The notes: a model not told the origin generated them from the sequence alone. 64,000 nt of DNA from Candidatus Gottesmanbacteria bacterium RIFCSPHIGHO2_02_FULL_39_11 (GCA_001779195.1 MFJL01000026.1:3226-67225), one strand, 5' to 3'; positions 1,947-38,901 are shown, counted from the first letter of the stretch. Numbers and translations are program-made.

Positions 1947-2771
1947 TTATTTTGAAGTTTTTTTACTTTCATGTTTTGCTACCTTTAGCATGAACCAAAC
2001 TAACAAGATTATCCCCATAAGAACAGCAATATCTAATAGGGGATTTGAAAGTTTTGAAGACAGGTTGAAAATAAATGTCCGAAGATTTTTGGCATAAGCC
2101 TCGTTTTCATCCATTATGATCTTATCGGTAAGCGCCATATAAGCGATAATAACTGATGACACCATAAAGAGAACACTTGCTGCCAGTTTTAAGGGTTTTT
2201 CTGTTTTGCTTTTTATCTTATACAGATACTGATTGGTAAGCTTTTCATAAAATAAGGATAGAAAAAAAAGAGGAAAGACTATTCCTAAAACGTAGACAAA
2301 TGAAACGATAAGAGAAGTAAGAATTGTCGGGGATAAGGATGATAGAGTAATTGCTGCAAATAGGACAGGGGCACAGCAGGATGAAGTAATGCCAGAAAAA
2401 AGTCCTAATACATAGGTCGAGAAAACGGTCGTTTTGGTTGGCATGGTAAAGTGAGGAAGCGGTAGCATCAGTTTGGTATCAAAAAGGGTCATTAACCCCA
2501 GAAGAAACATAAGAAGAGCTCCTAATAAGTAGGTAGTAGTATGAAACTGGTCAAACACCGAGACAATGATTTTCATGCCAAGCGCAACCGGAACGAGTAT
2601 CGAGCCTAAGCCTAGAGCGAATACTAGTGTCAGAAGAACAATCCGTTTCCTTTCCTTAAAAATAGTACCTAAATAGGAAGGAAATAAAAAAGTGATACAG
2701 CAGGGGGCAAAAAGGGCTACCATTCCGCCTAAAAAAGATGCCGTTAGTGATACTCCGAAAAGTGCAGTCAT
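1947..2771 (-). CDS. ccdA: cytochrome c biogenesis / thiol-disulfide transporter CcdA (DsbD TM-domain family)
   Basis: Polytopic membrane protein with paired-Cys motifs (APCCITF, SSCCAPV) and CcdA-like topology. It is the last gene of the copper operon. Confidence 0.55.
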   Translation of the reverse strand: MTALFGVSLTASFLGGMVALFAPCCITFLFPSYLGTIFKERKRIVLLTLVFALGLGSILVPVALGMKIIVSVFDQFHTTTYLLGALLMFLLGLMTLFDTKLMLPLPHFTMPTKTTVFSTYVLGLFSGITSSCCAPVLFAAITLSSLSPTILTSLIVSFVYVLGIVFPLFFLSLFYEKLTNQYLYKIKSKTEKPLKLAASVLFMVSSVIIAYMALTDKIIMDENEAYAKNLRTFIFNLSSKLSNPLLDIAVLMGIILLVWFMLKVAKHESKKTSK

Positions 2772-2773
2772 AA

Positions 2774-3286
2774 CTAGTTTACATTCGCCTTAACGGTAAA
2801 ATTCAACCTCGGATTATTCGGGTCATTTGTCTCCATAAACACGTCACGACTTACCTCTCCTTTAACCGGCATGATAAAAGGACGATATATAACAGATAAA
2901 GTTGCTTTCTTCCCCGGAGCAATTGTTCCAACCCATGGATTTTTGGAGTGCATGGAGAATTCAGGACTTACTTTCCCATCGATGGTTATCTGACCATAAG
3001 TACAATCACACGATGAGCTTATCTTAAAAAGGGAAAGAGGTTTCAGGCCGTTATTAACGATCGTAAATTCTGCAGATTTCTCATCTTTAACATTCATATT
3101 TCCTAGATCGGAAAAGAAAGATGATACGCTCGCCTCCGGCTTCTCTTTATCGTTTGCTCTGTAACTGGTTATATTGGAAGCTGCCTGGCTCTGTTTTCCT
3201 TCATTAATGGAAAAAAGAACAATGAGTACCAAAAGAAGCACGGTAATTCCGCCAATAATGTAAAAAACTAGCTTGTCCGTACCCAT
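2774..3286 (-). CDS. DUF1573-like membrane-anchored beta-sandwich protein
   Basis: N-terminal TM helix followed by a soluble domain with an SCDCT motif resembling the DUF1573 SCGCT signature. The assignment is inferred from memory of that family. Confidence 0.35.
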   Translation of the reverse strand: MGTDKLVFYIIGGITVLLLVLIVLFSINEGKQSQAASNITSYRANDKEKPEASVSSFFSDLGNMNVKDEKSAEFTIVNNGLKPLSLFKISSSCDCTYGQITIDGKVSPEFSMHSKNPWVGTIAPGKKATLSVIYRPFIMPVKGEVSRDVFMETNDPNNPRLNFTVKANVN

Positions 3287-3288
3287 AT

Positions 3289-6246
3289 TTACTTTCCGGA
3301 GCTGACTCGGACATTTGACATCGGTTTTTCAGGTGTTGCCATGGTTGAGCTAATTTTGGCAAATCCGGCAAAGATTAAACTAAAAATAATAATCATGACA
3401 GTAGGAGCAATAAATGATAGGTAGTTTCTGCGGTGCGGCTGAAAATAGCGTAGAGTCAGAGAATTACTAACCACTGATACAGACGACAAGGCCATAGCAA
3501 GTCCGGCAAGTTCCGGTTTGAGCACCAGTCCGGCAAATGCCAGCGCTCGTGCTGCAACCGGAATTCCAATCACATTGTAAAACAGGGCAAAGAACATATT
3601 CTGTTTGATTTTACCCATCGTTTCTTTTGATAAGTTAATTGCTGTCGCGACATCTCTTAAATCATTTTTTACAATGACAATTCCCCCCGCTTCCATAGCC
3701 ACATCGGTTCCAGAACCCATAGCAATTCCTAAATCTGCTTGTGCTAGAGCCGGAGCATCATTAATACCGTCTCCGACCATGGCAACCGTCTTACTTTGTT
3801 CCTGAAGTTTCTTCACCTCGCTTGCCTTATCCTGAGGCAATACTTCTGCAAGAACATTGGTTATTCCTAATTGTTTGGCTATAGCTTCTGCCGTTTTCCG
3901 GTTATCGCCCGTTATCATATAGACAGCTATATTCTTTGCTGTTAGTTTTTGAATGGCTTCCCGGGATGTCTCTTTGAGAGTATCCGCAACGGCAACAGTA
4001 CCTATAATTTCTTTGTTGTTGGAAAGAAGCATTACCGTTTTTCCTTGTTCCTCAAGTCGTACTACTTTTCTGTCGACTCTATCAATTGGTAAGCCGACAA
4101 CATCAGTTGTCAGTTTTCTATTTCCAAAATAATACGTTTCACCGTTAATAACCCCTTGTACTCCGTGTCCGGCAATTGCCTTAAACTGCTCGACTCCGGA
4201 TGTTTTTATCGATTCTTCATTTGCATAAGTTACGATTGCCTCAGCCAAAGGATGCTCAGAAGAACGCTCAAGACTTGCTGCAAGAGAAAGAACATCGTTC
4301 TCATCAAAGTCAGAAAAGCAATCGACGTCAGTAACTACAGGCTTACCGTTTGTCAGTGTGCCCGTCTTATCAAAAATTACAACATTCACCTTACAAGCCT
4401 TTTCAAGCGGCTCACCGCCTTTTATTAATATGCCGTGTTCAGCACCTTTTCCGGTTCCTACCATAAGAGCGGTTGGAGTTGCCAGTCCCAACGCGCATGG
4501 ACAGGCGATGACTATCACTGCCGTAAATGCCATAAGTGCATAGGAAAGCGGTGCACCGATTACAAAAAACCATACAACAAAGGTAAGAAGTGCAATCGCA
4601 ATTACAGCCGGGACAAAGTATGCTGATATTTTATCGGCGAAAGCTTGAATAGGAGCTTTGCTTCCTTGAGCTTCTTCAATAAGTCTGATTATCTGAGACA
4701 ATGTTGTTTCCGATCCCACACGGGTTGCTTCAAATTCAAAACTGCCCATCTTATTCATAGTAGCGCCAATAACTGTATCACCAATATTTTTCTCAACCGG
4801 GATACTTTCACCGGTTACCATGGACTCGTCAATACTTGATGAACCCTTTATTATTTTCCCGTCAACTGGTATCTTTTCACCCGGTCTAACCAAAATAACA
4901 TCTCCTTTAACTACTTCATCAATCGGTATATCTAGCGTTTGATTGCCGCGCACCACTCGTGCAGTTTTTGCCTGAAGACCCATCAGCTTTTTTATGGCGT
5001 CTGATGTCTGTCCTTTAGCACGAAGTTCGAGCCATTTTCCTAAAAGAACAAAGGTAATAAGAAATGCCGCTGTTTCAAAATACAGTTCAGGAATTTTTTC
5101 TCCGTTTAGACCAATAAATGAACCGGTCCTAAGACTGTAGAATAGAAAATTATAGATACTGTATAGAAATGCAGTTGACGTTCCGATTGCTATAAGACTG
5201 TCCATATTAAACGTCTTCATACGAAGAGCAGATATCATTCCTTTATAGAAACTGTTTCCTAAGAAGATTTGGACCGGTGAGGCAAGAAGAAAAGAGATAG
5301 CTCCTACATACGGAAGTAAAATAGTCTTTCCCGGAATGAAAGGGAAGAAGTCAAAAAGCATAAAGTAGAGCATGGGAAAACTTAGCACAAAACCCATAAT
5401 GAATTTATTACGGGCTTTTTTTATTTCTTTCTGCCTTTTTTTTGACTCGAAAGTAGCATCTTTCTGATTGACAATTTCCGCTTTATATCCTGCTCTCTCC
5501 ACGGCCTTAATCAGTAAGTCAACAGACGTTTTTGCTAGGTTAAAATCAACGAGAGCTTTTTCTGCCGCGAAGTTGACATTTGCCTGCGATACGCCATCTA
5601 CTTTTTTTAAGGATCTCTCGATAATTGCCGCACAGGAGGAACAGTGCATCCCTGAAAGGGATAGATTGACTCTTGTAGTTTGAGATGCAATATTTTCCTG
5701 TTTTTGTATGCTTTTATTTTCTCTATCTTTCCCAATTTCAGGTGTATTTGCAGAAGATGTGATTCCGTCAAAAAGTCTGATTACATCAAGTGAAGAGACA
5801 AGATTCTCTAAATACTCCTTAGACGTTTTTTGATTTTCCGGAACAGATACCTTTACTTGGCGGTTGTTCTTGAGCACTCCTTCAAAATACGATTTACCTT
5901 CAGGATCTTGTCGTACTTTTCCTTCGGCTACGATTTCCGATTCCAATGAAAACTTAAGAGGTTTTCCTGTTGGAATAACTTCTTGCTCTATATTCATTCC
6001 ATTTCCCAATACAGCATTCCCATTTCCGTTACTTTCAACTTTCGCTTCATATCCGGCACGAGCAATGGCAGAAACAATATTCCGTAATGATCCGTCATTA
6101 TCATCTGCTACCAGACTGGCAGCACCTGTTTTATGATCGATGGATCTCACCTGTACCCCAGGAATTTCCGACAGTTCATCTTTAATAAGAGCTTCACATG
6201 AACTACAATGCATTCCCGAGATAGTAAAGTTTATGTTTGTTGTCAT
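3289..6246 (-). CDS. copA: copper-translocating P1B-type ATPase with multiple N-terminal HMA domains
   Basis: HMA motifs GMHCSSC (x2), TM CPC motif [11 protein letters not shown], phosphorylation site FDKTGTLT, hinge [10 protein letters not shown]; 985 aa. Confidence 0.9.
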
Positions 6247-6249
6247 ATC

Positions 6250-6465
6250 TTATGCTTCTAAAACGGTATAGGGCATACCCGACAGTGCAGTGATAATATC
6301 GGACACTTTCAACTCATTGCTGCTTGTTATCGTCGTTTCTCCGTTATTGTTTTTAATCGCCACATCTGTAACTCCTGTAAGCCTTCCCACTTTTTTCTTA
6401 ATCAATTTGACACAAGCTTCGCAGGTTATCCCTGAAATTTTTAAAGTTAAAGTGTAATTATTCAT
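6250..6465 (-). CDS. copZ: copper chaperone (HMA domain protein, CopZ-like)
   Basis: 71 aa with GITCEACV metal-binding motif; its start overlaps copA. Confidence 0.8.
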   Translation of the reverse strand: MNNYTLTLKISGITCEACVKLIKKKVGRLTGVTDVAIKNNNGETTITSSNELKVSDIITALSGMPYTVLEA

Positions 6466-8228
6466 AGAACTTTGATAACTCCCCGTGGTACACCCATTGC
6501 ACAGGTAATAGGATAATTTCCTTTTCCATTCGGGGTGAAATTGAAGGTAATTGTTTTACCTTTCGCCAAATATTGAGGATCATCTACCAGTCTTGGAATA
6601 GTTATGGTTCCCATGCACCCCGACCCGTTATCTTTAACATCTATTTCCATCCTTACCGGTGTTCCAGCTTTTACAGAAAACTCATTAGGAGAAATATCCC
6701 GGTCAGCAGTATATGTTGTTTTTATAACCTGTACGGCACCTTCCCGTTTTGCTTCTTGGGCAACAACGGGTTGTTGGACAGCTTGTTTTGCCCCTCCTCC
6801 ACAACCGCAACCGCCCGTCCCGCATGATACTCCGCTTTTTGCCGGCGGTGCCTGCGCAACTGCATCCGTACTTTTTTCAACTACATTAAAAACTCCCGTA
6901 TACATGCCCATACTGCATGAGAAAGGCAATCTTCCAACGTCTGTTGGGGTAAATTCTATGGTATTGTCACCTAATTCAAGATTTTTCCGTATGCCAAGGC
7001 GGGATATAATGATGGCACTGGCACACGTATTAGAATCAGTTGAGTTGATTTCCCATTTCACCGGAACATCTTTTACGACAGTAAATATATTCGGATTATA
7101 TCCGTTTGCCGACTGCGTCATCTTAACGACTTGAAAACCATCCACAATAGTATTGACAGAAGATGCAGCCAATACATTCTGATTAGAAGAAAAAAGATAT
7201 GCAGGAGATAATCCCATCAAATTTAATCCGTTTTGAGCATTGAAAAACGCTAGTATTGTAACGACAACACCGGCAAATTTGAAGAATTTTTGGGCAAAAT
7301 ATCCTTTGATGACGGATGTCACTCCTCCGACACCTAATAATCCGGGAGCAGTACCCAAAGCAAAAATACCCATGATGGTGGCCCCTCTGATAAAACTGCC
7401 GCTACTCATAGCCAAAAGCTGCATCGCTTGGGTAAAACCGCAGGGAAGAAAAAAAGTCAATCCGCCCAGGATGAATGCATTTTTATGACTGTATTCTTTA
7501 TTCTGCTGCTCTTTTATCCCCAACGCCTTACTTATTCCTGTTGGAAGAGTGAAATGGGCATTGCTGATCCTGGGAAACAGTCCGGTAAGTTGCAATCCGA
7601 GCATCAACATAACCAGAGCTACTCCCAAGGTAAGAAGACCTAAACCAAAGCCAGATAGCTGAAAAAATGATCCGATTAGGCCAATAACACCGCCCAGTAT
7701 TACGTAAGAGGTGATTCTTCCGAAATTAAAAAAAAGATGGGGTTTAAATTTTTCATACACTGATGCATTAGGATTTTTTTCTGAAAAACGGGCAGATACC
7801 CCAAGCACCAGACCTCCCACAAGCGCCATGCAGGTAGAGAGACCTGCGGTTATTCCTATCAGGAATATGGGTATCAGACCGGACGGACGGGAAATAGAAG
7901 TACTGAATAATTTGTTTAAACCAAATATATCGACAAGAATAAAAAGAAAGGAAAGCACAATAACTGAAATGATAATATCTTTGTAGTCATTAATGTTTTT
8001 AGAAAAAAGCGGTTTTTCCTCCTCGTAACCAACTTGATACCCTGCCCGCTCTACTGACTGTATAATTGTGCCATCATTTAAGTAGTTTTCGTGATAAAGT
8101 TCTGCACATTTTTTCCGCTGGGAAACGGTAACTTTTTTCACTCCGGGGATGTCTTTTAATTCATCCTCAATTAAAAGTTCGCAGGATCTGCAGTGCATTC
8201 CTTGAATTGGAACAGTAGTGATTCTCAT
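6462..8228 (-). CDS. fusion protein: N-terminal HMA domain, polytopic permease-like membrane domain, Cys/Gly-rich linker, two C-terminal cupredoxin-like domains
   Basis: N-terminal GMHCRSC HMA motif; ~8 predicted TM helices (TauE/SafE- or CcdA-like); GCGCGGG linker. Two tandem beta-rich repeats end in C..M motifs (SCSMGM, TCAMG) reminiscent of cupredoxin/CopC-like copper sites. Confidence 0.5.
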   Translation of the reverse strand: MRITTVPIQGMHCRSCELLIEDELKDIPGVKKVTVSQRKKCAELYHENYLNDGTIIQSVERAGYQVGYEEEKPLFSKNINDYKDIIISVIVLSFLFILVDIFGLNKLFSTSISRPSGLIPIFLIGITAGLSTCMALVGGLVLGVSARFSEKNPNASVYEKFKPHLFFNFGRITSYVILGGVIGLIGSFFQLSGFGLGLLTLGVALVMLMLGLQLTGLFPRISNAHFTLPTGISKALGIKEQQNKEYSHKNAFILGGLTFFLPCGFTQAMQLLAMSSGSFIRGATIMGIFALGTAPGLLGVGGVTSVIKGYFAQKFFKFAGVVVTILAFFNAQNGLNLMGLSPAYLFSSNQNVLAASSVNTIVDGFQVVKMTQSANGYNPNIFTVVKDVPVKWEINSTDSNTCASAIIISRLGIRKNLELGDNTIEFTPTDVGRLPFSCSMGMYTGVFNVVEKSTDAVAQAPPAKSGVSCGTGGCGCGGGAKQAVQQPVVAQEAKREGAVQVIKTTYTADRDISPNEFSVKAGTPVRMEIDVKDNGSGCMGTITIPRLVDDPQYLAKGKTITFNFTPNGKGNYPITCAMGVPRGVIKVL

Positions 8229-8289
8229 AAAATATCTATACCCATCTTACTCAGGTTTGCAACTAGAATAGTTGCAATAGCTCACTTAG

Positions 8290-8322
8290 CACTGTAAAAT
8301 TTTTTAAAAAAAATTTACAGTG
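8290..8322. promoter_or_regulatory. palindrome cactgtaaaa-AT-ttttacagtg, copy 2, ~65 nt upstream of the copper operon start
   Basis: Near-identical to 904-936. It is followed upstream by a second perfect palindrome tactgaaaaa-ggcg-tttttcagta (8336-8359) and a direct repeat ttttcagtatat (8351-8362, 8393-8404). Confidence 0.55.
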
Positions 8323-8639
8323 TAAAATGGGTTTATACTGAAAAAGGCGTTTTTCAGTATATATGCTGGAAAAACATATTTCAACCTCGAGTTTTTTCAG
8401 TATATTAGGTAATTTTAGTAATAACGACTATCTTACCAATACAGTTATTAAGATTTTATGAGTACCGGGCACAAAAAATTTATTCGTATTATTTCCTTTC
8501 CTTTTTCGTGATCTCCTTGGCGAAATAAATGATACCGAGAATAAGAAAAACAATAACTAATAACCATATCAGTGAACCAAATATTCCCCAGCCAGACATC
8601 ATATTTGAGTAATATCCCATCATAATAAGCCACCTCCTT

Positions 8640-10826
8640 TCAAATTGAAATTAAATCTTTTTCTGCTCGTTTTAATAATACTGCATTTGTCGCCACAATA
8701 ATTGATGAGATACTCATAAGAAGTGCTGATATTTCAGGCCGTAATGAAATACCAAACCCAGGATATAAAATACCTGCTGCAACCGGAATTGCCAGAAGGT
8801 TATAAATCGATGCCCAAAACAGATTTTGTTTCATTTTGCGCACGGTTGCTTTGGATAATTTGATTGCTCGTAGAATATCAGCAGGATCTGATTTCATTAG
8901 GACAACTTTCGCGGTCTCAATAGCAACATCAGTACCAGCGCCAATTGCAATTCCTATATCTGCTTGTGAGAGAGCCGGAGCATCATTGACTCCATCGCCA
9001 ACCATAGCAGTAAACTTACCTTCTTTTTGTAACTTCTTAATATATGAGGCTTTGTCTTCCGGCAACACCTCAGAGAATATTCTGTCTATAGTTAATTGCT
9101 TCCCAATTGCTTCCGCAGTTTTTTTATTATCGCCTGTTATCATGGCTACTTCCAACCCCAACTCTTTCATAGCTAGGATTGCTTCTTTGGCTGTTGGTTT
9201 AATCTTATCGGCTGCTGCCGCCACGCCTGCAACTTTGCCGTCAATTGCCAAAATCATTATGGTTTTGCCCTCAGATAATAATCGGTCAATATCTTTCTGG
9301 AGTGGAGTAATATCAACTTTCCGATCATTCATGAGCTTTATGGTTCCCACAAGAACGTGCCTGCCGGAAACATACGCTTCAACGCCATGACCAGCTAAGT
9401 TTTTGAATCCCGCAACTTCACCTAGAACAAGTTTTTCTTTCTCGGCTTTTTCCAAAATAGCGTGACTTAGAGGATGACTCGATCGCTTCTCAACAGAGGC
9501 AATAAACCATAGAACCTTTTTCTCATCGTGCGATACTGATAGTATATCAATCACGGTGGGTTTGCCTTCTGTCAATGTACCCGTCTTATCAAGAACCACT
9601 GCTTGGATTTTTGATACCTGCTCAAGCGTGGGGGCATCTTTGATGAGGATATTATGTTTGGCTCCAAGACCAGTGCCTACTGCTACGGCAGTTGGAGTTG
9701 CTAGTCCAAGTGCATCCGGACAAGCAATCACGACAGTTGAAATAGCAAAGGACAGCGCAACAAGAAGTGGTTGACCCAGAATAAAAAACCAAATACCGAA
9801 TGTCAAAAGCCCACCGCCTACGGCGATTATAACAAGATATTTGGCAAACTTATCTGCTAATTTTTGCCCGGGTGCTTTTGAGTTCTGGGCAGTTTCCACC
9901 ATTTTAACAATTTGGGCAAGAGCAGTATCTTCGCCAACTTTCGTGGCTTTGAATTTGACAGAGCCGGAAGTATTGATTGAACCACCAATAACCGAATCGC
10001 CTATATTTTTAGCCACCGGAATTGACTCACCAGTAACCAGAGATTCATCAATCGCCGTCTCTCCTTCGATAATCTCGCCATCGACTGGCACTTTGTCCCC
10101 TGGTTTAAGCATAAGAATATCGCGAGACTTAACTTGTGATGTAGGTACCATTTCTTCTTTTCCATCTTTCCAAAGCCTTGCTTGGGGAGGAACGAGGTTA
10201 AATAATGCTTGGAGTGCATCGGTAGTACCCCGCCGACTTTTCATCTCCATCCAATGGCCAAAAAGCACAAAGGTAATAAGCATTACAGAGGCTTCGTAAT
10301 ACGAATCATTACTGCCTAAAATAGTTAGGACAACACTAAATCCATAGGCCGCTGTGATCCCTACCGCAATCAAAACTGCCATATTGAGAGTCTTGGCTTG
10401 AAGTGCTTTATAAGTTGAATAAAGGAAGATCCATCCGGCGTAGAAAAATACGGGTGTGGTTAACAGAAACAGAAGCCACGGTACTGGAATTGGACTTGGT
10501 AAAGTTACTCCGATAATTTTCTCCCCAAGGGGGGAATACAGGATAATGGGGATGGAAAAAAGCAGAGCGAAAAAGAATTTATTTCGGATATCTTCTTCCA
10601 TCAACTTTGCCATTTCACGACCTGCCAATCCTCCGTGCTCCATCCCCATACTCATCGTCATACTCATCTTTAATTTTTCCCATGATGACATCCCAGAAGT
10701 AGGCTTCATGACATGTCCAGCTTCTAATTTCTCACTTCTGGCTTCCAGTTCCATCCCGCATTTAGGACATGAACCAGGAATATCTGAAGAAATTTCAGGA
10801 TGCATCGGACACGTATATTTTTGCAT
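8640..10826 (-). CDS. heavy-metal (Cu) P1B-type ATPase with N-terminal CPMHPE...CPKCGM metal-binding domain and Met-rich segment; non-canonical CPD TM motif
   Basis: YTCPMHPEISSDIPGSCPKCGM (HMBD-type), MSMTMSMGMEHGG Met-rich stretch, TM motif IACPDALGLATP (CPD rather than CPC/CPH), LDKTGTLT, GDGVNDAPAL. Confidence 0.85.
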   Translation of the reverse strand: MQKYTCPMHPEISSDIPGSCPKCGMELEARSEKLEAGHVMKPTSGMSSWEKLKMSMTMSMGMEHGGLAGREMAKLMEEDIRNKFFFALLFSIPIILYSPLGEKIIGVTLPSPIPVPWLLFLLTTPVFFYAGWIFLYSTYKALQAKTLNMAVLIAVGITAAYGFSVVLTILGSNDSYYEASVMLITFVLFGHWMEMKSRRGTTDALQALFNLVPPQARLWKDGKEEMVPTSQVKSRDILMLKPGDKVPVDGEIIEGETAIDESLVTGESIPVAKNIGDSVIGGSINTSGSVKFKATKVGEDTALAQIVKMVETAQNSKAPGQKLADKFAKYLVIIAVGGGLLTFGIWFFILGQPLLVALSFAISTVVIACPDALGLATPTAVAVGTGLGAKHNILIKDAPTLEQVSKIQAVVLDKTGTLTEGKPTVIDILSVSHDEKKVLWFIASVEKRSSHPLSHAILEKAEKEKLVLGEVAGFKNLAGHGVEAYVSGRHVLVGTIKLMNDRKVDITPLQKDIDRLLSEGKTIMILAIDGKVAGVAAAADKIKPTAKEAILAMKELGLEVAMITGDNKKTAEAIGKQLTIDRIFSEVLPEDKASYIKKLQKEGKFTAMVGDGVNDAPALSQADIGIAIGAGTDVAIETAKVVLMKSDPADILRAIKLSKATVRKMKQNLFWASIYNLLAIPVAAGILYPGFGISLRPEISALLMSISSIIVATNAVLLKRAEKDLISI

Positions 10827-12287: not shown

Positions 12288-12353
12288 AGAATAGATTAAG
12301 AAATCGTGAGATTATTATCCAGTATTAATCAGGGTTGAACTTTTTGCTTCCAA

Positions 12354-12372
12354 TTACTACAATTAGTAGTAA
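12354..12372. promoter_or_regulatory. palindrome ttactac-aatta-gtagtaa immediately upstream of blaI/copY-like start
   Basis: Perfect 7-bp arms; ends 6 nt before the ATG at 12378. It shares the ACTAC/GTAGT core with the 13763-13781 palindrome. Confidence 0.5.
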
Positions 12373-12377
12373 CCTAT

Positions 12378-12758
12378 ATGTTTCAAAAAACACTAAGCCC
12401 TCTGGAACAAGAGATTATGACTATTGTTTGGGAACTGAAGAAGTGCTCTGTTCGGGATGTTATGGAGCAACTTAACCGGGAGAAAAAACTTGCGTATACA
12501 ACGGTTGCCACACTGCTTCAGCGCTTGTTTGAAAAGGGTCTTGTCCAGAGAGGCAGTCGAGGTACAGTACTTTCCTACATACCTAAAGTTTCCAAGGAAC
12601 TATACAGCAAAAGAACGGCTAAGTCGTTTATGCGAACGTTTGTGTCTTCTTTTGGGGAAACAGCTATCGCTTCGTTTGCCGAGTCTATTGACAAACTGCC
12701 AAAGGACAAAAAGGATTATTTGTTGCAGCTGTTGGAAAAACAAAATGAGGATAAATAA
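12378..12758 (+). CDS. BlaI/MecI/CopY-family winged-helix transcriptional repressor
   Basis: The N-terminus (LSPLEQEIMTIVWELKKCSVRDVMEQL...KLAYTTVATLLQRLFEKGLVQR) matches the penicillinase-repressor family. It has no C-terminal Cys cluster, so it is BlaI-like rather than classical CopY. Confidence 0.8.
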   Translation: MFQKTLSPLEQEIMTIVWELKKCSVRDVMEQLNREKKLAYTTVATLLQRLFEKGLVQRGSRGTVLSYIPKVSKELYSKRTAKSFMRTFVSSFGETAIASFAESIDKLPKDKKDYLLQLLEKQNEDK

Positions 12759-13731
12759 GCATTTGTTCATTTTTTCAAGTTTATTATTTCTTCTGACTGC
12801 GAGTTATTTTTTTGTTTTAGTGAAGTTTTTTCCACTACTGGTACACCATACCTTTTATTACTGTCAAGAAATGGCAAAGGTAATATCTTTGAGCCTTCCG
12901 GGGAACTGGGGAGTTGTTGTCTTTGGGATATTAATTATTTCGGTTCTTTACACCGCATTCAAATTATTTGCTACCATCGTTCAAGTTTATAAGTTTCGTC
13001 AGTTGTTGTCCCGATCCATTGTCAAGAATCATGAACTTTCAGATATTTTCAAATCTCTCAAGCTTGTAGATAAAGTGGTCGTATTACATGAAACTAAGCC
13101 ATTTGCATATTGTTTTGGAGTAAGAAACCCAAAAATCTTTATTACTATTGGTTTAATTGCAATGGTTAATAGAAAGGAACTTGAGGTTATTTTACGCCAC
13201 GAAAAGTATCATCTGGAACATCGGGATAACCTAATTTTACTGGTAGCAACATTTATTGAGTCTCTATTCCCTTTTTTCCCAATACTTACGGACCTTATCC
13301 GTATTTACAAGACAGATCGGGAATTACTAGCAGATCAGGCTGCTATCCATAGAGAAGCAGATAAACATTCCCTTTCGTCTATTTTGAAAAAACTCCTTCA
13401 ATATGAACCCGTAACACTACCTGCATTGGCTCCCGCAATTGCTGATGTTGATACACTTGAGACTCGTATAAAATCATTGCTTTCAATTAAAGTAGATTAT
13501 CCTAAGCTAGGAAAAAGAAATTCGCTTCTCAGTATAATTTCCATTGCCGCACTCATGGCGCTTATGAGAACTTCTGTACATGCAGTAGAACTTCATAGGG
13601 ACGGCTTGGATATAATGATAGTCTGTAATGGAAATGTCAGCTGCGAATCTGTCTGTAAAGACCGCAACTTGATCAAATCGCAAAGTATCAGCTCTTCGTA
13701 CACTTCTAAAAACTTCTCCGCAAACAACTGA
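12745..13731 (+). CDS. M56-family (BlaR1-like) membrane metalloprotease / antirepressor without a penicillin-binding sensor domain; His/Cys-rich extracytoplasmic tail
   Basis: HEXXH motif (RHEKYHLEHRD) between TM helices. An in-frame ATG at 12745 overlaps the repressor stop by 14 nt. After the last TM the C-terminus reads HAVELHRDGLDIMIVCNGNVSCESVC. Confidence 0.7.
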   Translation: MRINKHLFIFSSLLFLLTASYFFVLVKFFPLLVHHTFYYCQEMAKVISLSLPGNWGVVVFGILIISVLYTAFKLFATIVQVYKFRQLLSRSIVKNHELSDIFKSLKLVDKVVVLHETKPFAYCFGVRNPKIFITIGLIAMVNRKELEVILRHEKYHLEHRDNLILLVATFIESLFPFFPILTDLIRIYKTDRELLADQAAIHREADKHSLSSILKKLLQYEPVTLPALAPAIADVDTLETRIKSLLSIKVDYPKLGKRNSLLSIISIAALMALMRTSVHAVELHRDGLDIMIVCNGNVSCESVCKDRNLIKSQSISSSYTSKNFSANN

Positions 13732-13801: not shown

Positions 13802-14566
13802 ATGCCGGAAAACTTATCCACTCTGAAAATAAACACAGTGTTTGCGGGATTTTTAATCGTTGCTTCATTTATCATTGGTTCTTTATGGACAAAAGTGCAG
13901 TATCTCGAGAAGGGAGCTTCACAACCTGCGCTGGCTGCCGATAACCCAAGTGCCGATGTGCCTGCTCCAATTGTCGCTCCAGGGGATAATGGTGAGCCGG
14001 TAAAAGTATCAATTGATGACGATCCTGTATTGGGAGATAAGAACGCAAAAGTGACATTGATAGATTTTTCAGATTACGAATGTCCTTTTTGTAAACGACA
14101 TTTCGATGAAGTCTATCCACAACTGAAGAAAGACTATATTGATACGGGAAAAGTCAAAATGGTTTTTCGCGACCTTCCTTTGAGCTTTCATCAAAATGCT
14201 CCCAAAGAGGCTGAGGCCGCTGAGTGTGCAAGAAAACAAGGCGGTGACCAGATGTACTACAAGTACCACGACCAAATCTTTACCAAAACCACTTCCAACG
14301 GAACAGGCTTAGCTCTTGACCAGCTACCAGTTATAGCCAAAGACTTAGGGCTGAATATAGGTCAGTTTCAACAGTGTCTTGATTCCGGCGAATTTAAAGC
14401 GGAAGTCGATAAAGACTTAGCCGATGCAGCTAAAGTCGGGGCTAGTGGTACACCTACGTTTTTTATCGGTAAATCAACAAGCAATGGCGAGATAGACGGC
14501 ATCAAGGTGGTTGGAGCACAACCGTACAGCGCTTTTAAGACAATTATTGATGAAAAATTGAAATAA
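13802..14566 (+). CDS. DsbA-like thioredoxin-fold thiol:disulfide oxidoreductase (membrane-anchored)
   Basis: N-terminal TM segment; CPFC active site in YECPFCKRHF context; DsbA-family length. Confidence 0.7.
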   Translation: MPENLSTLKINTVFAGFLIVASFIIGSLWTKVQYLEKGASQPALAADNPSADVPAPIVAPGDNGEPVKVSIDDDPVLGDKNAKVTLIDFSDYECPFCKRHFDEVYPQLKKDYIDTGKVKMVFRDLPLSFHQNAPKEAEAAECARKQGGDQMYYKYHDQIFTKTTSNGTGLALDQLPVIAKDLGLNIGQFQQCLDSGEFKAEVDKDLADAAKVGASGTPTFFIGKSTSNGEIDGIKVVGAQPYSAFKTIIDEKLK

Positions 14567-37401: not shown

Positions 37402-38901
37402 TTATCCTAAACTTTTTCTAAGCACTCCGGATCTGGTTATAAGATCCGAGACTTTTTTATGGTGCCGATCCTCGTAAATAGTGTCCGTCAATTCTTTATG
37501 TTCAAAATGAGACGGTTCTTTCGGTCCTAACTCAATATGAAAAATCTCTTCAATGCCTTCTATATCTTTTCGCAATCCGTTTAAGTTTTTTATGCTTCCT
37601 ATAGTCTTTTCAAGAGTATTTTGATTGAAAAAATAACCTGCCTGGATGATATCATTTTTAAGTGTGGGGTACAAATGTAAAATTTCAGAAAGTACACCTT
37701 TCTTTTTGGCATCTAGTAGTCCCCGCCCGGTTCCTATAATCTCAGGCGGAATCCCTATGGAATAAAGAGAAGCAGTAAAGGGAATTGCCCGGGGTAATGT
37801 CACTTTTCCGACTCCTCTGCTGTATCCAAACAATCCTACATGCTGCACCCGTTCGCGCCTTTTTGCTACCTGTTTACTCAGAATATTTATAAGCGGCGCA
37901 ATTTTTTCAATCGTTTCCCGATATGGTTTTTCAAAAAAGGAAACTGATTCTTTTGCAGTATTTTCAAGTTTCTTAGGAACGGAGACGGCACTTAGATGGG
38001 GAAGTTCCCTATTTAATTCGTGAATTGCTTCCTTGACTCTTTTCTCAGCATAATCATATCTAAAAGCACTTTGAATTGTGAGAGTTCTTACCCCCGGATA
38101 TTTTTGAATGGTTTCTGAAGTAGTTAACGGATTTACCCCTCCCCTAAAAGGAAGAGAGCCGGTCCCCAGCATCGGGAAAAGTTTTACTCCGGTTTCACTC
38201 TCCAAAGATGAGAAATTTGATAAAGCGCATCTGACTGCGAGCATTGTTGCAACCAGTCCTGAATTTAATGCCGGATCGCTTCTGGCACAATAGGGTCTTA
38301 GGTATTGGGGTTTTTTGCCGAATTTTTTAAGATGGAGTGAAATATATTTTTTTATGATGTTGCTTGATTCAAATATGCGCTCTACTTGCTCAAAAAGAGG
38401 AATAATTTCAATATGCTGAATGGAGTCTTCCATTTTCAACAGTTTGTGATCGATTGCGACAAGTTCACGAAATGCTTCCTGAATGTCCATAATCTCAGAA
38501 GCGGTCTCAGTAAGAGGGAGGATGGTTTCAAAAATAGGCGGGCTTGAGAATCCCAGACTTTCAGCCAACTGTGAACTGGTTATCATAACCATAAAGGCTC
38601 GTGCCAGTCTGAACTGCTTTTCAATCCGGGGATTAGGGATGCGGAATGTCAGAAATTTTTCTTTGCCCAGAGAGTGACTTTTAAAATAATCAAAGTATTT
38701 ATGCAAAAGCCGGTCAACAACGGCCTCATCCACAAACTTTCCCTCCCAGTCCCAGTTATATTCATCCATCCCGAGATTATTAAAACAATAATAAGCCTCG
38801 CGGGGTTCGGTTCCGGTTGATATATAAGCACGGGAATTCCAAAGAGGACGTCCTGCATTGTCCGGATGCTGAGTAGCCATGGTAGAGGGAATTTTGCGCA
38901 T
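37402..38901 (-). CDS. archaeal-type phosphoenolpyruvate carboxylase
   Basis: N-terminal IPSTMATQHPDN motif and ~500-aa length are characteristic of atPEPC (PpcA). Confidence 0.65.
   Translation of the reverse strand: MRKIPSTMATQHPDNAGRPLWNSRAYISTGTEPREAYYCFNNLGMDEYNWDWEGKFVDEAVVDRLLHKYFDYFKSHSLGKEKFLTFRIPNPRIEKQFRLARAFMVMITSSQLAESLGFSSPPIFETILPLTETASEIMDIQEAFRELVAIDHKLLKMEDSIQHIEIIPLFEQVERIFESSNIIKKYISLHLKKFGKKPQYLRPYCARSDPALNSGLVATMLAVRCALSNFSSLESETGVKLFPMLGTGSLPFRGGVNPLTTSETIQKYPGVRTLTIQSAFRYDYAEKRVKEAIHELNRELPHLSAVSVPKKLENTAKESVSFFEKPYRETIEKIAPLINILSKQVAKRRERVQHVGLFGYSRGVGKVTLPRAIPFTASLYSIGIPPEIIGTGRGLLDAKKKGVLSEILHLYPTLKNDIIQAGYFFNQNTLEKTIGSIKNLNGLRKDIEGIEEIFHIELGPKEPSHFEHKELTDTIYEDRHHKKVSDLITRSGVLRKSLG

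Follow-up and report, generated by a model that had tools for sequence, protein, structure and literature searches.

At the cytoplasmic membrane, bacterial copper homeostasis is currently explained by P1B ATPases together with soluble or tethered chaperones. The gene analysed here lies in a stretch of 64,000 nucleotides (nt) from Candidatus Gottesmanbacteria (the window; positions are those of this whole stretch, while residues are numbered along the encoded protein). It is the first gene of a copA operon, and specifies a single chain of 588 amino acids (aa) in which an HMA domain, a membrane core of the DsbD_2 type and two CupA-like cupredoxin domains are joined. This fusion protein is real, widespread and built from known parts. 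Its probable task is to move Cu(I) across the membrane or, alternatively, reducing equivalents that maintain copper-binding thiols in a functional state.

The beta-domains of the fusion protein resemble CupA and the cupredoxin-type domain of CopA from Streptococcus pneumoniae (structures 4f2e, 2mry and 4f2f), with which they share a cupredoxin-like beta-barrel and the ligand pattern C...CxMxM. CupA is membrane-tethered and encoded in the cop operon; its ligands form a binuclear Cu(I) cluster composed of a high-affinity bis-thiolate site (S1) and a Met-rich site (S2), and its fold has been reported from only a few streptococcal species (2020 review, PMC7558416). CupA itself is small, has one N-terminal transmembrane (TM) anchor, faces the cytoplasm and has the cupredoxin-type CopA domain as its partner. 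In contrast, the corresponding domain of the fusion protein follows seven TM helices, is predicted to lie outside the cell and is duplicated with a degenerate second site, and the cognate CopA bears two HMA domains.

The membrane part is closest in plan to DsbD, CcdA and ScsB, which have a 6-TM core arranged as a 3+3 repeat, a single Cys at the break of TM1 and another at that of TM4, and external Ig-like domains with Cys pairs. ScsB moreover belongs to a system for copper stress: copper induces both it and ScsC, and the two bind Cu+ and hand it to CueP (PMC10907172). Unlike these proteins, the fusion protein belongs to PF13386 rather than PF02683 (which is matched by its relatives from Bacillota and Acidobacteriota), and has a cytoplasmic HMA domain and invariant Met residues in the membrane. 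Unlike DsbD, it has no thioredoxin-like gamma domain and contains seven TM helices rather than eight, while its external domains are C-terminal, of CupA type and provided with Met ligands. The same front end occurs in the COG2836 proteins of Firmicutes (HMA plus DsbD_2, with or without a DUF2318/FtrD-like part), which a computational study assigned, by inference, to the CsoR copper regulon of gut Firmicutes (PMC4938975). That account is in silico throughout, and the cupredoxin domain does not figure in it; a literature search found no other mention of the family and no experimental study of it. The form present in the window, typical of the candidate phyla radiation, differs from the COG2836 and clostridial proteins in having STCM rather than HCxAMC in TM1, and in lacking the FtrD-like neighbour.

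A relay of similar layout is that of MerP-MerT-NmerA (and of the MerTP and MerT-CopZ fusions), in which ligand exchange carries a thiophilic metal among Cys pairs situated on an outside domain, in a membrane helix and on an HMA domain inside. The mercury relay differs in that the fold of MerT is unrelated (3 TM), the outer domain is itself an HMA domain, and the flow, of Hg(II), is inward and driven by MerA. The fusion protein gave no match to the membrane domain of MerT, only its HMA part reaching Mer models, far below their cutoffs; no mer genes were present near the fusion gene. CopL of Staphylococcus aureus, CueP and CusF also bind Cu(I) at the surface or in the periplasm beside CopA-type pumps (PMC11672702; PMC10907172), but their folds are unrelated and none is fused to a polytopic core or a cytoplasmic HMA domain. 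Finally, two 3-TM repeats are shared with the LysE-superfamily exporters (CadD, MntP, RcnA/NicO, TerC) and UreH-like proteins; most families of the LysE/DsbD superfamily consist of secondary transporters that export heavy metals or amino acids (PMC4608589). Pfam searches revealed no sequence-level match of the fusion protein to CadD, MntP, RcnA/NicO, TerC or UreH-like proteins. We know of no LysE-superfamily exporter that carries Cu(I), or that has Cys/Met ligands together with a chaperone domain on either side of the membrane.

The open reading frame (ORF) starts with ATG and runs as a single 588-aa fusion, as originally predicted. An identical protein, 'hypothetical protein A3D77_07490' of Candidatus Gottesmanbacteria, is found on 4 contigs, and the guanine-plus-cytosine (GC) content is even along the gene. 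The parts of the gene are as follows:

6462-8228, minus strand: fusion gene, HMA plus 7-TM (DsbD_2) plus two CupA-like cupredoxin domains (ORF, Pfam, 100% identical database protein)
8031-8225, minus strand: HMA domain, aa 2-66, with GMHCRSC (C13, C16), predicted cytoplasmic (Pfam, NCBIfam, fold of the model)
7926-7994, minus strand: leader helix TM0, aa 79-101, separating the face of the HMA domain from that of the C-terminal domains (hydropathy peak 2.84, both models, positive-inside count)
7218-7880, minus strand: 6-TM DsbD_2 core, aa 117-337 (PF13386 at 113 bits, helix breaks in the model, cross-phylum invariance)
7827-7832, minus strand: C133-M134 in the broken TM1 (coordinates checked)
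7440-7445, minus strand: P262-C263 in the broken TM4 (coordinates checked)
7608-7610, 7422-7424 and 7371-7373, minus strand: the invariant membrane Met residues M207, M269 and M286, respectively (conservation, coordinates checked)
6879-7151, minus strand: cupredoxin domain 1, CupA-type, aa 360-450, with C402/C438/M440/M442, predicted extracytoplasmic (CupA match, Foldseek, CxMGM conservation)
6750-6878, minus strand: inter-domain linker, aa 451-493, predicted disordered, with the Cys/Gly motif SCGTGGCGCGGGA at 6789-6827 (C469, C474, C476; predicted local distance difference test score, pLDDT, and conservation)
6465-6749, minus strand: cupredoxin domain 2, aa 494-588, with a degenerate CupA-type site, C538-M539, C576, M578 and V580 (Pfam stretch 494-585, CupA alignment)

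The HMA domain (PF00403) was recognised over aa 5-64 (E = 2.9e-8; 34.4 bits against a gathering cutoff of 24.8) and is predicted to lie inside the cell, in agreement with the cytoplasmic type first assigned to it. In the model it folds as beta-alpha-beta-beta-alpha-beta (E-H-E-E-H-(E)), and GMHCRSC (aa 10-16) supplies the MxCxxC loop. NCBIfam models of the CopZ/MerP type (MerP, MerTP, MerT/CopZ fusion) matched the HMA part only, well below their cutoffs. C13 and C16 are invariant, both in the close family and across phyla. The other motifs on which the original prediction relied are likewise present: SCSMGM at aa 437-442, the Cys/Gly motif at 468-480 and TCAMG at 575-579.

Two families had been named for a domain search of the permease-like core. 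DsbD_2 was found (PF13386, aa 121-327; 113.3 bits, the cutoff being 24.9, with 2-197 of the 199 model positions covered), whereas TauE (PF01925) gave no match at E <= 0.1. With a context of copZ and copA, not of sulfite or sulfonate genes, a TauE/SafE sulfite exporter is unsupported. Hydropathy showed seven hydrophobic spans, and both AlphaFold models (full-length, pLDDT 71, predicted template-modelling score, pTM, 0.47; core-only, pLDDT 72, pTM 0.67) concur in a leader helix followed by a six-helix core, which corrects the earlier estimate of about eight TM helices to seven. In the models, TM1 (118-151) is broken at ...STC133M... (130-131) and TM4 (248-276) at ...LPC263G... (261-263). The only invariant polar or soft-ligand residues of the core are two Cys and three Met, and this set (C133, M207, C263, M269, M286) is invariant between Patescibacteria and Bacillota proteins that are only 26-31% identical. 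An N-in/C-out topology is predicted, with the HMA domain in the cytoplasm and both beta-domains and the Cys/Gly linker outside the cell, since the loop charges are inside-positive (a mean of 14.3 Lys+Arg in the predicted inner loops versus 1.9 in the outer ones, over 32 homologues) and no signal peptide precedes the HMA domain. A distant homologue (P0344, 720 aa) is extended at its C-terminus by ScsC_N and DSBA, which are types of extracytoplasmic proteins, in agreement with a C-out arrangement.

Pfam Cupredoxin_1 (PF13473) matched two stretches of the C-terminal part (E = 5.8e-20). Domain 1 aligned with S. pneumoniae CupA (2mry/4f2e; sequence E = 9e-9), with the ligands in register, and with the cupredoxin-type metal-binding domain of CopA (4f2f; E = 1.7e-7). 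Its model was superimposed by Foldseek on 4f2e with a template-modelling score of 0.87 (root-mean-square deviation 1.3 Å, 27% identity) and on 4f2f with a score of 0.85. Residue for residue, C402/C438/M440/M442 match the C...CxMxM ligand set of CupA. Domain 2 also aligned with CupA in register, although with E = 0.11 when searched alone, and has CAMGV where CupA has CGMNM; it retains C538, C576 and M578, with V580 in place of the last Met. The two cupredoxin-like C...M domains first described thus are both of CupA type, but only the first has an intact site. A generic Ig fold devoid of metal ligands, raised as a possibility at the time, is excluded, since CupA is matched both by sequence and by fold and the metal-ligand residues are in register. 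Neither beta-domain contains His, a residue absent from the whole of aa 249-588, so they are not blue-copper electron carriers; with the His2-Cys(-Met) site missing and the CupA ligand set conserved, a type 1 cupredoxin is excluded as well.

The linker joining the two domains, SCGTGGCGCGGG, is probably disordered because its pLDDT is below 50 over aa 454-487. Its Cys residues are invariant in the close family, and a linker or tail with at least two Cys is present in about 35 of the 77 family proteins used for the conservation survey; the Cys/Gly stretch is absent from several two-domain forms, and Cys/Gly tails recur as GGCC/CGCG in Bacillota and in an archaeal homologue, the C-terminus of which is SCGGGGGGCGCG. 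About half of the 77 proteins (437-480 aa) have one cupredoxin domain, domain 2 being missing, and half have two. Compared across the family, the second domain and the GCGCGGG linker appear to be lineage-specific accessories and not the core of the device. Nearly all the 77 members do keep S[TS]CM in TM1, FFLPCGFTQAMQ in TM4 and CxMGM in domain 1, and 75 of them keep the HMA motif.

The fusion had been considered unusual, but it is very common in Patescibacteria and Bacillota, and orthologues with the same arrangement were readily found. An exhaustive HMMER search of 1.84 billion cluster representatives returned 6430 matches at E <= 1e-3, 2398 at E <= 1e-10 and 1043 at E <= 1e-30 (50%-identity clusters), the commonest form being a single-domain protein of approximately 450 aa. 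The three-domain architecture was present in all 120 of the best matches listed (best 120 of 4400 at E <= 1e-5), which is beyond what chance would give. When one genome per GTDB species was scanned, at least 592 loci with relatives were recovered, and the same architecture was found beside copA in at least 592 GTDB species, nearly all of those inspected being Patescibacteria; Bacillota proteins with it number in the thousands. In plasmid and chromosome records, tblastn identified a 480-aa protein sharing this architecture in Acetoanaerobium noterae, where its gene directly precedes copA; used as a query, it gave 7999 matches at E <= 1e-5, the best ones listed having the architecture. Cultured Bacillota among the matches listed include Clostridium thermosuccinogenes, Caldicoprobacter, Petroclostridium and Sporobacter; other members are labelled as Kerfeldbacteria, Acidobacteriota or an uncultured archaeon. 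The residues invariant across phyla, at 26-31% identity, include C13, C16, C133, M207, P262-C263-G264, Q267, M269, Q270, M286, C402, C438, M440, G441 and M442, and Bacillota have a second Cys in TM1 (HCxAMC). That the architecture is not a described family holds insofar as no experimental description was found; it does not hold for Pfam, where the architecture is catalogued under misleading names. Database entries call these proteins 'sulfite exporter TauE/SafE', 'heavy metal transporter' or 'UreH domain-containing'.

The gene opens a five-gene operon in the order fusion-copZ-copA-DUF1573-CC membrane protein. As stated in the original prediction, it comes first; its stop codon overlaps the start of copZ as ATGA, and the gaps downstream of copZ are of 2-3 nt. 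The genes that follow it are:

6250-6465, minus strand: copZ, a 71-aa HMA chaperone, the start of which overlaps the stop codon of the fusion gene (ORF, Pfam; position conserved in most of the 80 related loci)
3289-6246, minus strand: copA, a P1B-1 Cu(I) ATPase of 985 aa with two HMA domains and CPC and MALSS motifs (ORF, Pfam, synteny)
2774-3286, minus strand: a membrane-anchored DUF1573/Ig-like protein with a CDC motif (directly after copA, 2-nt gap)
1947-2771, minus strand: a 274-aa polytopic protein with APCC and SSCCAP motifs (last gene of the operon, 2-nt gap)

Synteny was counted in the best 80 loci, most of them titled as Patescibacteria lineages (among others Gottesman-, Roizman-, Levy-, Ames-, Moran-, Magasanik-, Falkow-, Uhr-, Berkel-, Gracili- and Saccharibacteria, and WWE3). 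In about 70 of them (copZ)-copA follows the fusion gene directly, in the 3′ direction and on the same strand, and, contig ends aside, copA is always nearby. A separate copZ is missing from about half of the loci, where the fused HMA domain is therefore the only non-ATPase domain of the chaperone type. About 20 of the 80 loci (e.g. L001, L004 and L008; metagenome-assembled genomes marked TPA_asm) are labelled 'uncultured Gammaproteobacteria/Pseudomonadales/Bdellovibrionales'; their proteins are 50-67% identical to the Gottesmanbacteria protein and the gene order is the same, so the taxon names look like stand-ins or errors of assignment. C. thermosuccinogenes has the genes arranged as copZ - FtrD-like (formerly DUF2318) - fusion - copA, and Sporobacter has the same order minus the separate copZ. 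The 174-aa FtrD-like gene (PF10080) lies directly upstream of the fusion gene in Clostridia (L082, 4299-4823; L083, 4338-4862); this hints at a further redox or metal partner, absent from the window. In three loci the place of copZ, between fusion gene and copA, is taken by genes for proteins of 119-128 aa (L061, 9342-9701; L063, 10070-10456; L077, 9454-9813), with an N-terminal TM anchor followed by K/R residues and with SSCLEEV...CGMGM motifs. From their sequences these would be genuine CupA orthologues of Patescibacteria, oriented towards the cytoplasm. A motif search of CopA from the same three loci found the HMA motif, and did not find the cupredoxin-type CxMxM motif. Locus L022 has, alongside a full-length copy, an HMA-less paralogue of 339 aa (2588-3607) consisting of the core and one cupredoxin domain.

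Together, the sequence and the models place Cu(I)-type sites on both faces of the membrane, joined by a Cys/Met core. Our preferred, if tentative, reading is that the protein is a single-chain thiol/thioether relay for Cu(I) across the cytoplasmic membrane, working with CopZ/CopA efflux. It is favoured because the HMA and CupA-type modules are all copper or thiophilic-metal modules, and a Cu(I) path could be expected to call for an invariant set of thioethers; to our knowledge, membrane Met residues of this kind have no role in disulfide exchange. The predicted placing of binding domains on opposite faces, the near-obligate synteny with copA, the retention of the HMA domain in nearly all members, the exporters that prevail in the superfamily and the CsoR-regulon assignment of the COG2836 proteins also speak for it. 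That metal passes through the core, which way it goes and what drives it are inferences. The HMA domain (C13/C16) would receive Cu(I) from the cytosol or from CopZ and, by ligand exchange, deliver it to an intramembrane site formed by C133 (TM1) and C263 (TM4) at the helix breaks; M134/M207 would flank this site, with M269/M286 following in the outer leaflet. Cu(I) would next reach the tethered CupA-type domain or domains, of which domain 1 would offer a bis-thiolate plus Met2 site, while the Cys/Gly linker and domain 2 would add capacity. The net direction is most likely outward, because the gene is co-transcribed with an exporter, the metal carriers of the LysE superfamily are mostly exporters, and monoderms can profit from surface buffering of Cu(I); surface Cu(I) binding by CopL gives resistance in S. 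aureus (PMC11672702). The role would be that of an auxiliary export or hand-off route and a surface Cu(I) buffer in monoderm, mostly anaerobic bacteria. Of the copper uptake/relay or periplasmic delivery device first proposed, the relay is the most economical element, and uptake is the least likely direction. A bolder version, in which the family constitutes an unrecognised class of secondary, non-ATPase Cu(I) exporters on a DsbD/LysE scaffold, with a bucket brigade from HMA through Cys2Met3 to CupA-type acceptors, and a regular third member of the cop operons of Patescibacteria and Clostridia, is doubtful.

Several observations weigh against a copper relay. C133 and C263 occupy the exact positions of the redox-active pair of DsbD/CcdA, the relatives from Bacillota also match DsbD_TM (PF02683), and the frequent DsbA/ScsC-like neighbours, together with the one ScsC fusion, fit electron transfer at least as well. 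The pTM of the full-length model is low, and a structure comparison of the core retrieved no similar solved structure. No cop box was found upstream and no operator is conserved across loci for this operon. That copA is nearby in every case could mean that the protein is an accessory of CopA and not a transporter in its own right. The HMA-less paralogue of L022 and the fact that no experimental datum was found for any member of the family also count against the relay.

The most serious rival, not considered in the original prediction, is possible but less likely than the relay: a reductant conduit like ScsB/DsbD, in which C133/C263 carry reducing equivalents outward from the cytoplasm in place of metal. 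There the conduit would keep Cys residues reduced in the CupA-type domains and Cys/Gly linker of the fusion protein itself, as well as in the DsbA/ScsC-like and DUF1573 CxC proteins encoded nearby. These thiols would then bind Cu(I), e.g. that released by CopA, and copper-induced disulfides would be repaired, the HMA domain acting as a cytoplasmic copper sensor or gate. This agrees with the DsbD_2 score of 113 bits and the relatives that match DsbD_TM too, with the Cys residues at the breaks of TM1 and TM4 as in the 3+3 repeat of the DsbD type, with external Ig-like Cys-pair domains that parallel DsbD-alpha and ScsB-alpha, and with the copper link of ScsB/ScsC/CueP (PMC10907172). External thiolate sites for Cu(I) require a supply of reductant; a DsbA-like gene is present in about 18 of the 80 loci, often adjacent and in L051 occupying the copZ slot, and P0344 provides a direct fusion to ScsC_N and DSBA. 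However, a role has to be invented for the near-universal cytoplasmic HMA domain, and the invariant Met207/269/286 in the membrane are left unexplained. Rare fusions aside, the protein has no thioredoxin-fold domain, the one in the window does not match PF02683 at E <= 0.1, the operon already has another DsbD-like candidate with CC motifs (1947-2771), and linkage to copA (about 70 of 80 loci) is far tighter than that to DsbA-like genes. Metal relay and reductant supply could also coexist in one protein.

It is improbable that the protein transports nothing and is a two-sided tethered chaperone or CopA accessory, with the HMA domain feeding CopA inside, the external domains taking Cu(I) from the CopA exit as CusF, CueP or CopL would, and the core serving as a scaffold. 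Such a role would suit a protein never found apart from copA, save at contig ends, and loci of which half lack copZ; tethering to the membrane is essential to CupA function in S. pneumoniae (PMC7558416), and Cu(I) binding by CopL at the surface confers resistance on S. aureus (PMC11672702). A mere scaffold, however, would not keep C133, M207, P262-C263-G264, Q267, M269, Q270 and M286 invariant across phyla, and a single TM anchor would suffice, as in the CupA-like genes of L061, L063 and L077.

Slightly more improbable still is an inward relay like MerP-MerT-NmerA, in which the external domains capture Cu(I) and pass it via the core to HMA/CopZ, for copper supply, sensing or routing to CopA. 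The order of outside site, membrane Cys pair and inside HMA domain is the same as in the mercury relay, the HMA part matches the MerP, MerTP and MerT/CopZ fusion models, and M269 and M286 in the outer leaflet are reminiscent of the Met-rich entrances of copper importers. Against this, an importer co-transcribed with an exporter would set up futile cycling, nothing in the cytoplasm corresponds to MerA as a sink, the related loci yielded no cuproenzyme genes (in a search limited to a fixed set of cop-locus proteins), and metal carriers of the LysE superfamily are mostly exporters (PMC4608589). Lastly, that the gene is an artefact, an assembly chimera or a mis-called ORF fusing unrelated genes, as the original prediction had cautioned, has a negligible probability and is excluded, because full-length collinear homologues exist in thousands of independent assemblies, complete genomes such as CP006914 (WWE3) and CP021850 (C. 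thermosuccinogenes) among them; the 4 contigs and the even GC content speak against it too, and nothing was found in its favour.

Upstream of the fusion gene and farther along the window, the following features were noted:

8229-8488, minus strand: 5′ region of the operon, 260 bp non-coding, with candidate elements (a promoter-like site and several palindromes)
8356-8384, minus strand: putative promoter-like site (scan of the upstream region)
12378-12758, plus strand: BlaI/CopY-family repressor (Pfam)
12754-13731, plus strand: BlaR1-like M56 protease (Pfam)
13802-14566, plus strand: membrane-anchored DsbA-like thioredoxin-fold protein (Pfam)

The leader of the fusion gene contains a perfect palindrome, TTGCAACTAGAATAGTTGCAA (8257-8277; TTGCAACTA-GAA-TAGTTGCAA), which is unique in the window, and, between 8334 and 8404, three exact copies of TATACTGAAAAA, two of them as an inverted pair. 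A 45-bp AT-rich palindromic element, TTAGCACTGTAAAA-T(5-6)A8-TTT(T)ACAGTGTAAAA, occurs at 898-942 and 8284-8328 in the same orientation, so placed that the two copies flank the five-gene cop operon and an amino-acid-kinase gene. Its TTTACA-N-TGTAAA half-sites are like those of a BlaI/CopY box except for the 1-nt spacing. The element was absent from all 84 related loci fetched; its possible roles include those of operator, promoter and island boundary. The canonical CopY cop box, TACANNTGTA, was not found upstream, its sole match in the window, at 37670, being no more than expected by chance, and no operator was conserved upstream of the gene across 75 related loci. With neither a cop box nor a shared operator, copper regulation of this operon is deduced only from its gene content.

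The BlaI/CopY, BlaR1-like and DsbA-like genes lie 4-6 kb from the fusion gene on the opposite strand, and are candidate regulatory and redox neighbours. The whole trio, or the DsbA-like gene, stands beside the fusion gene in about 18 of the 80 loci, and a BlaI/BlaR1-like pair flanks it in several. The repressor of the window lacks the Cys-rich C-terminal tail of CopY, while the BlaR1-like protease has a Cys-rich C-terminal part (VCNGNVSCESVC); the palindrome TTACTACAATTAGTAGTAA lies directly upstream of the two genes (region 12353-13731, plus strand). The pair may form a proteolytic metal-sensing switch.

The last two genes of the operon, DUF1573 and that for the 274-aa protein, recur as a pair in 12-15 of the 80 related cop loci, and resemble a split counterpart of a Cys-bearing membrane core with an external Ig-like Cys domain. 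The 274-aa protein had no Pfam match, matched in NCBIfam only weakly the DsbD part of TsoB, and showed no significant similarity to the fusion protein in BLASTP. On the other side of the fusion gene lies a second P1B ATPase (8640-10826, minus strand) with an unusual CPD in TM4 instead of CPC/CPH; it also bears a stretch rich in Met (MSMTMSMGM) and, N-terminally, an HMBD zinc-ribbon (PF19335). Next comes an ORF for a 44-aa membrane protein (8489-8623, minus strand) with a strong ribosome-binding site.

In two large lineages, Patescibacteria and Bacillota, the ATPases and chaperones of the cytoplasmic membrane are thus joined by a third component, which is very common and strictly linked to copA. 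If it proves to be a Cu(I) carrier, it would represent a new class of transporter, in which the electron-transfer scaffold of DsbD has been adapted to metal; if an electron carrier, it would be a functional counterpart, in one polypeptide, of the proteobacterial ScsB/ScsC/CueP system. On either reading the CupA fold would extend to two further phyla and, by prediction, to the outside of the cell. The misleading annotation as 'sulfite exporter TauE/SafE' is corrected, and the cultured clostridial homologues make the choice between carriage of metal and carriage of electrons directly testable.

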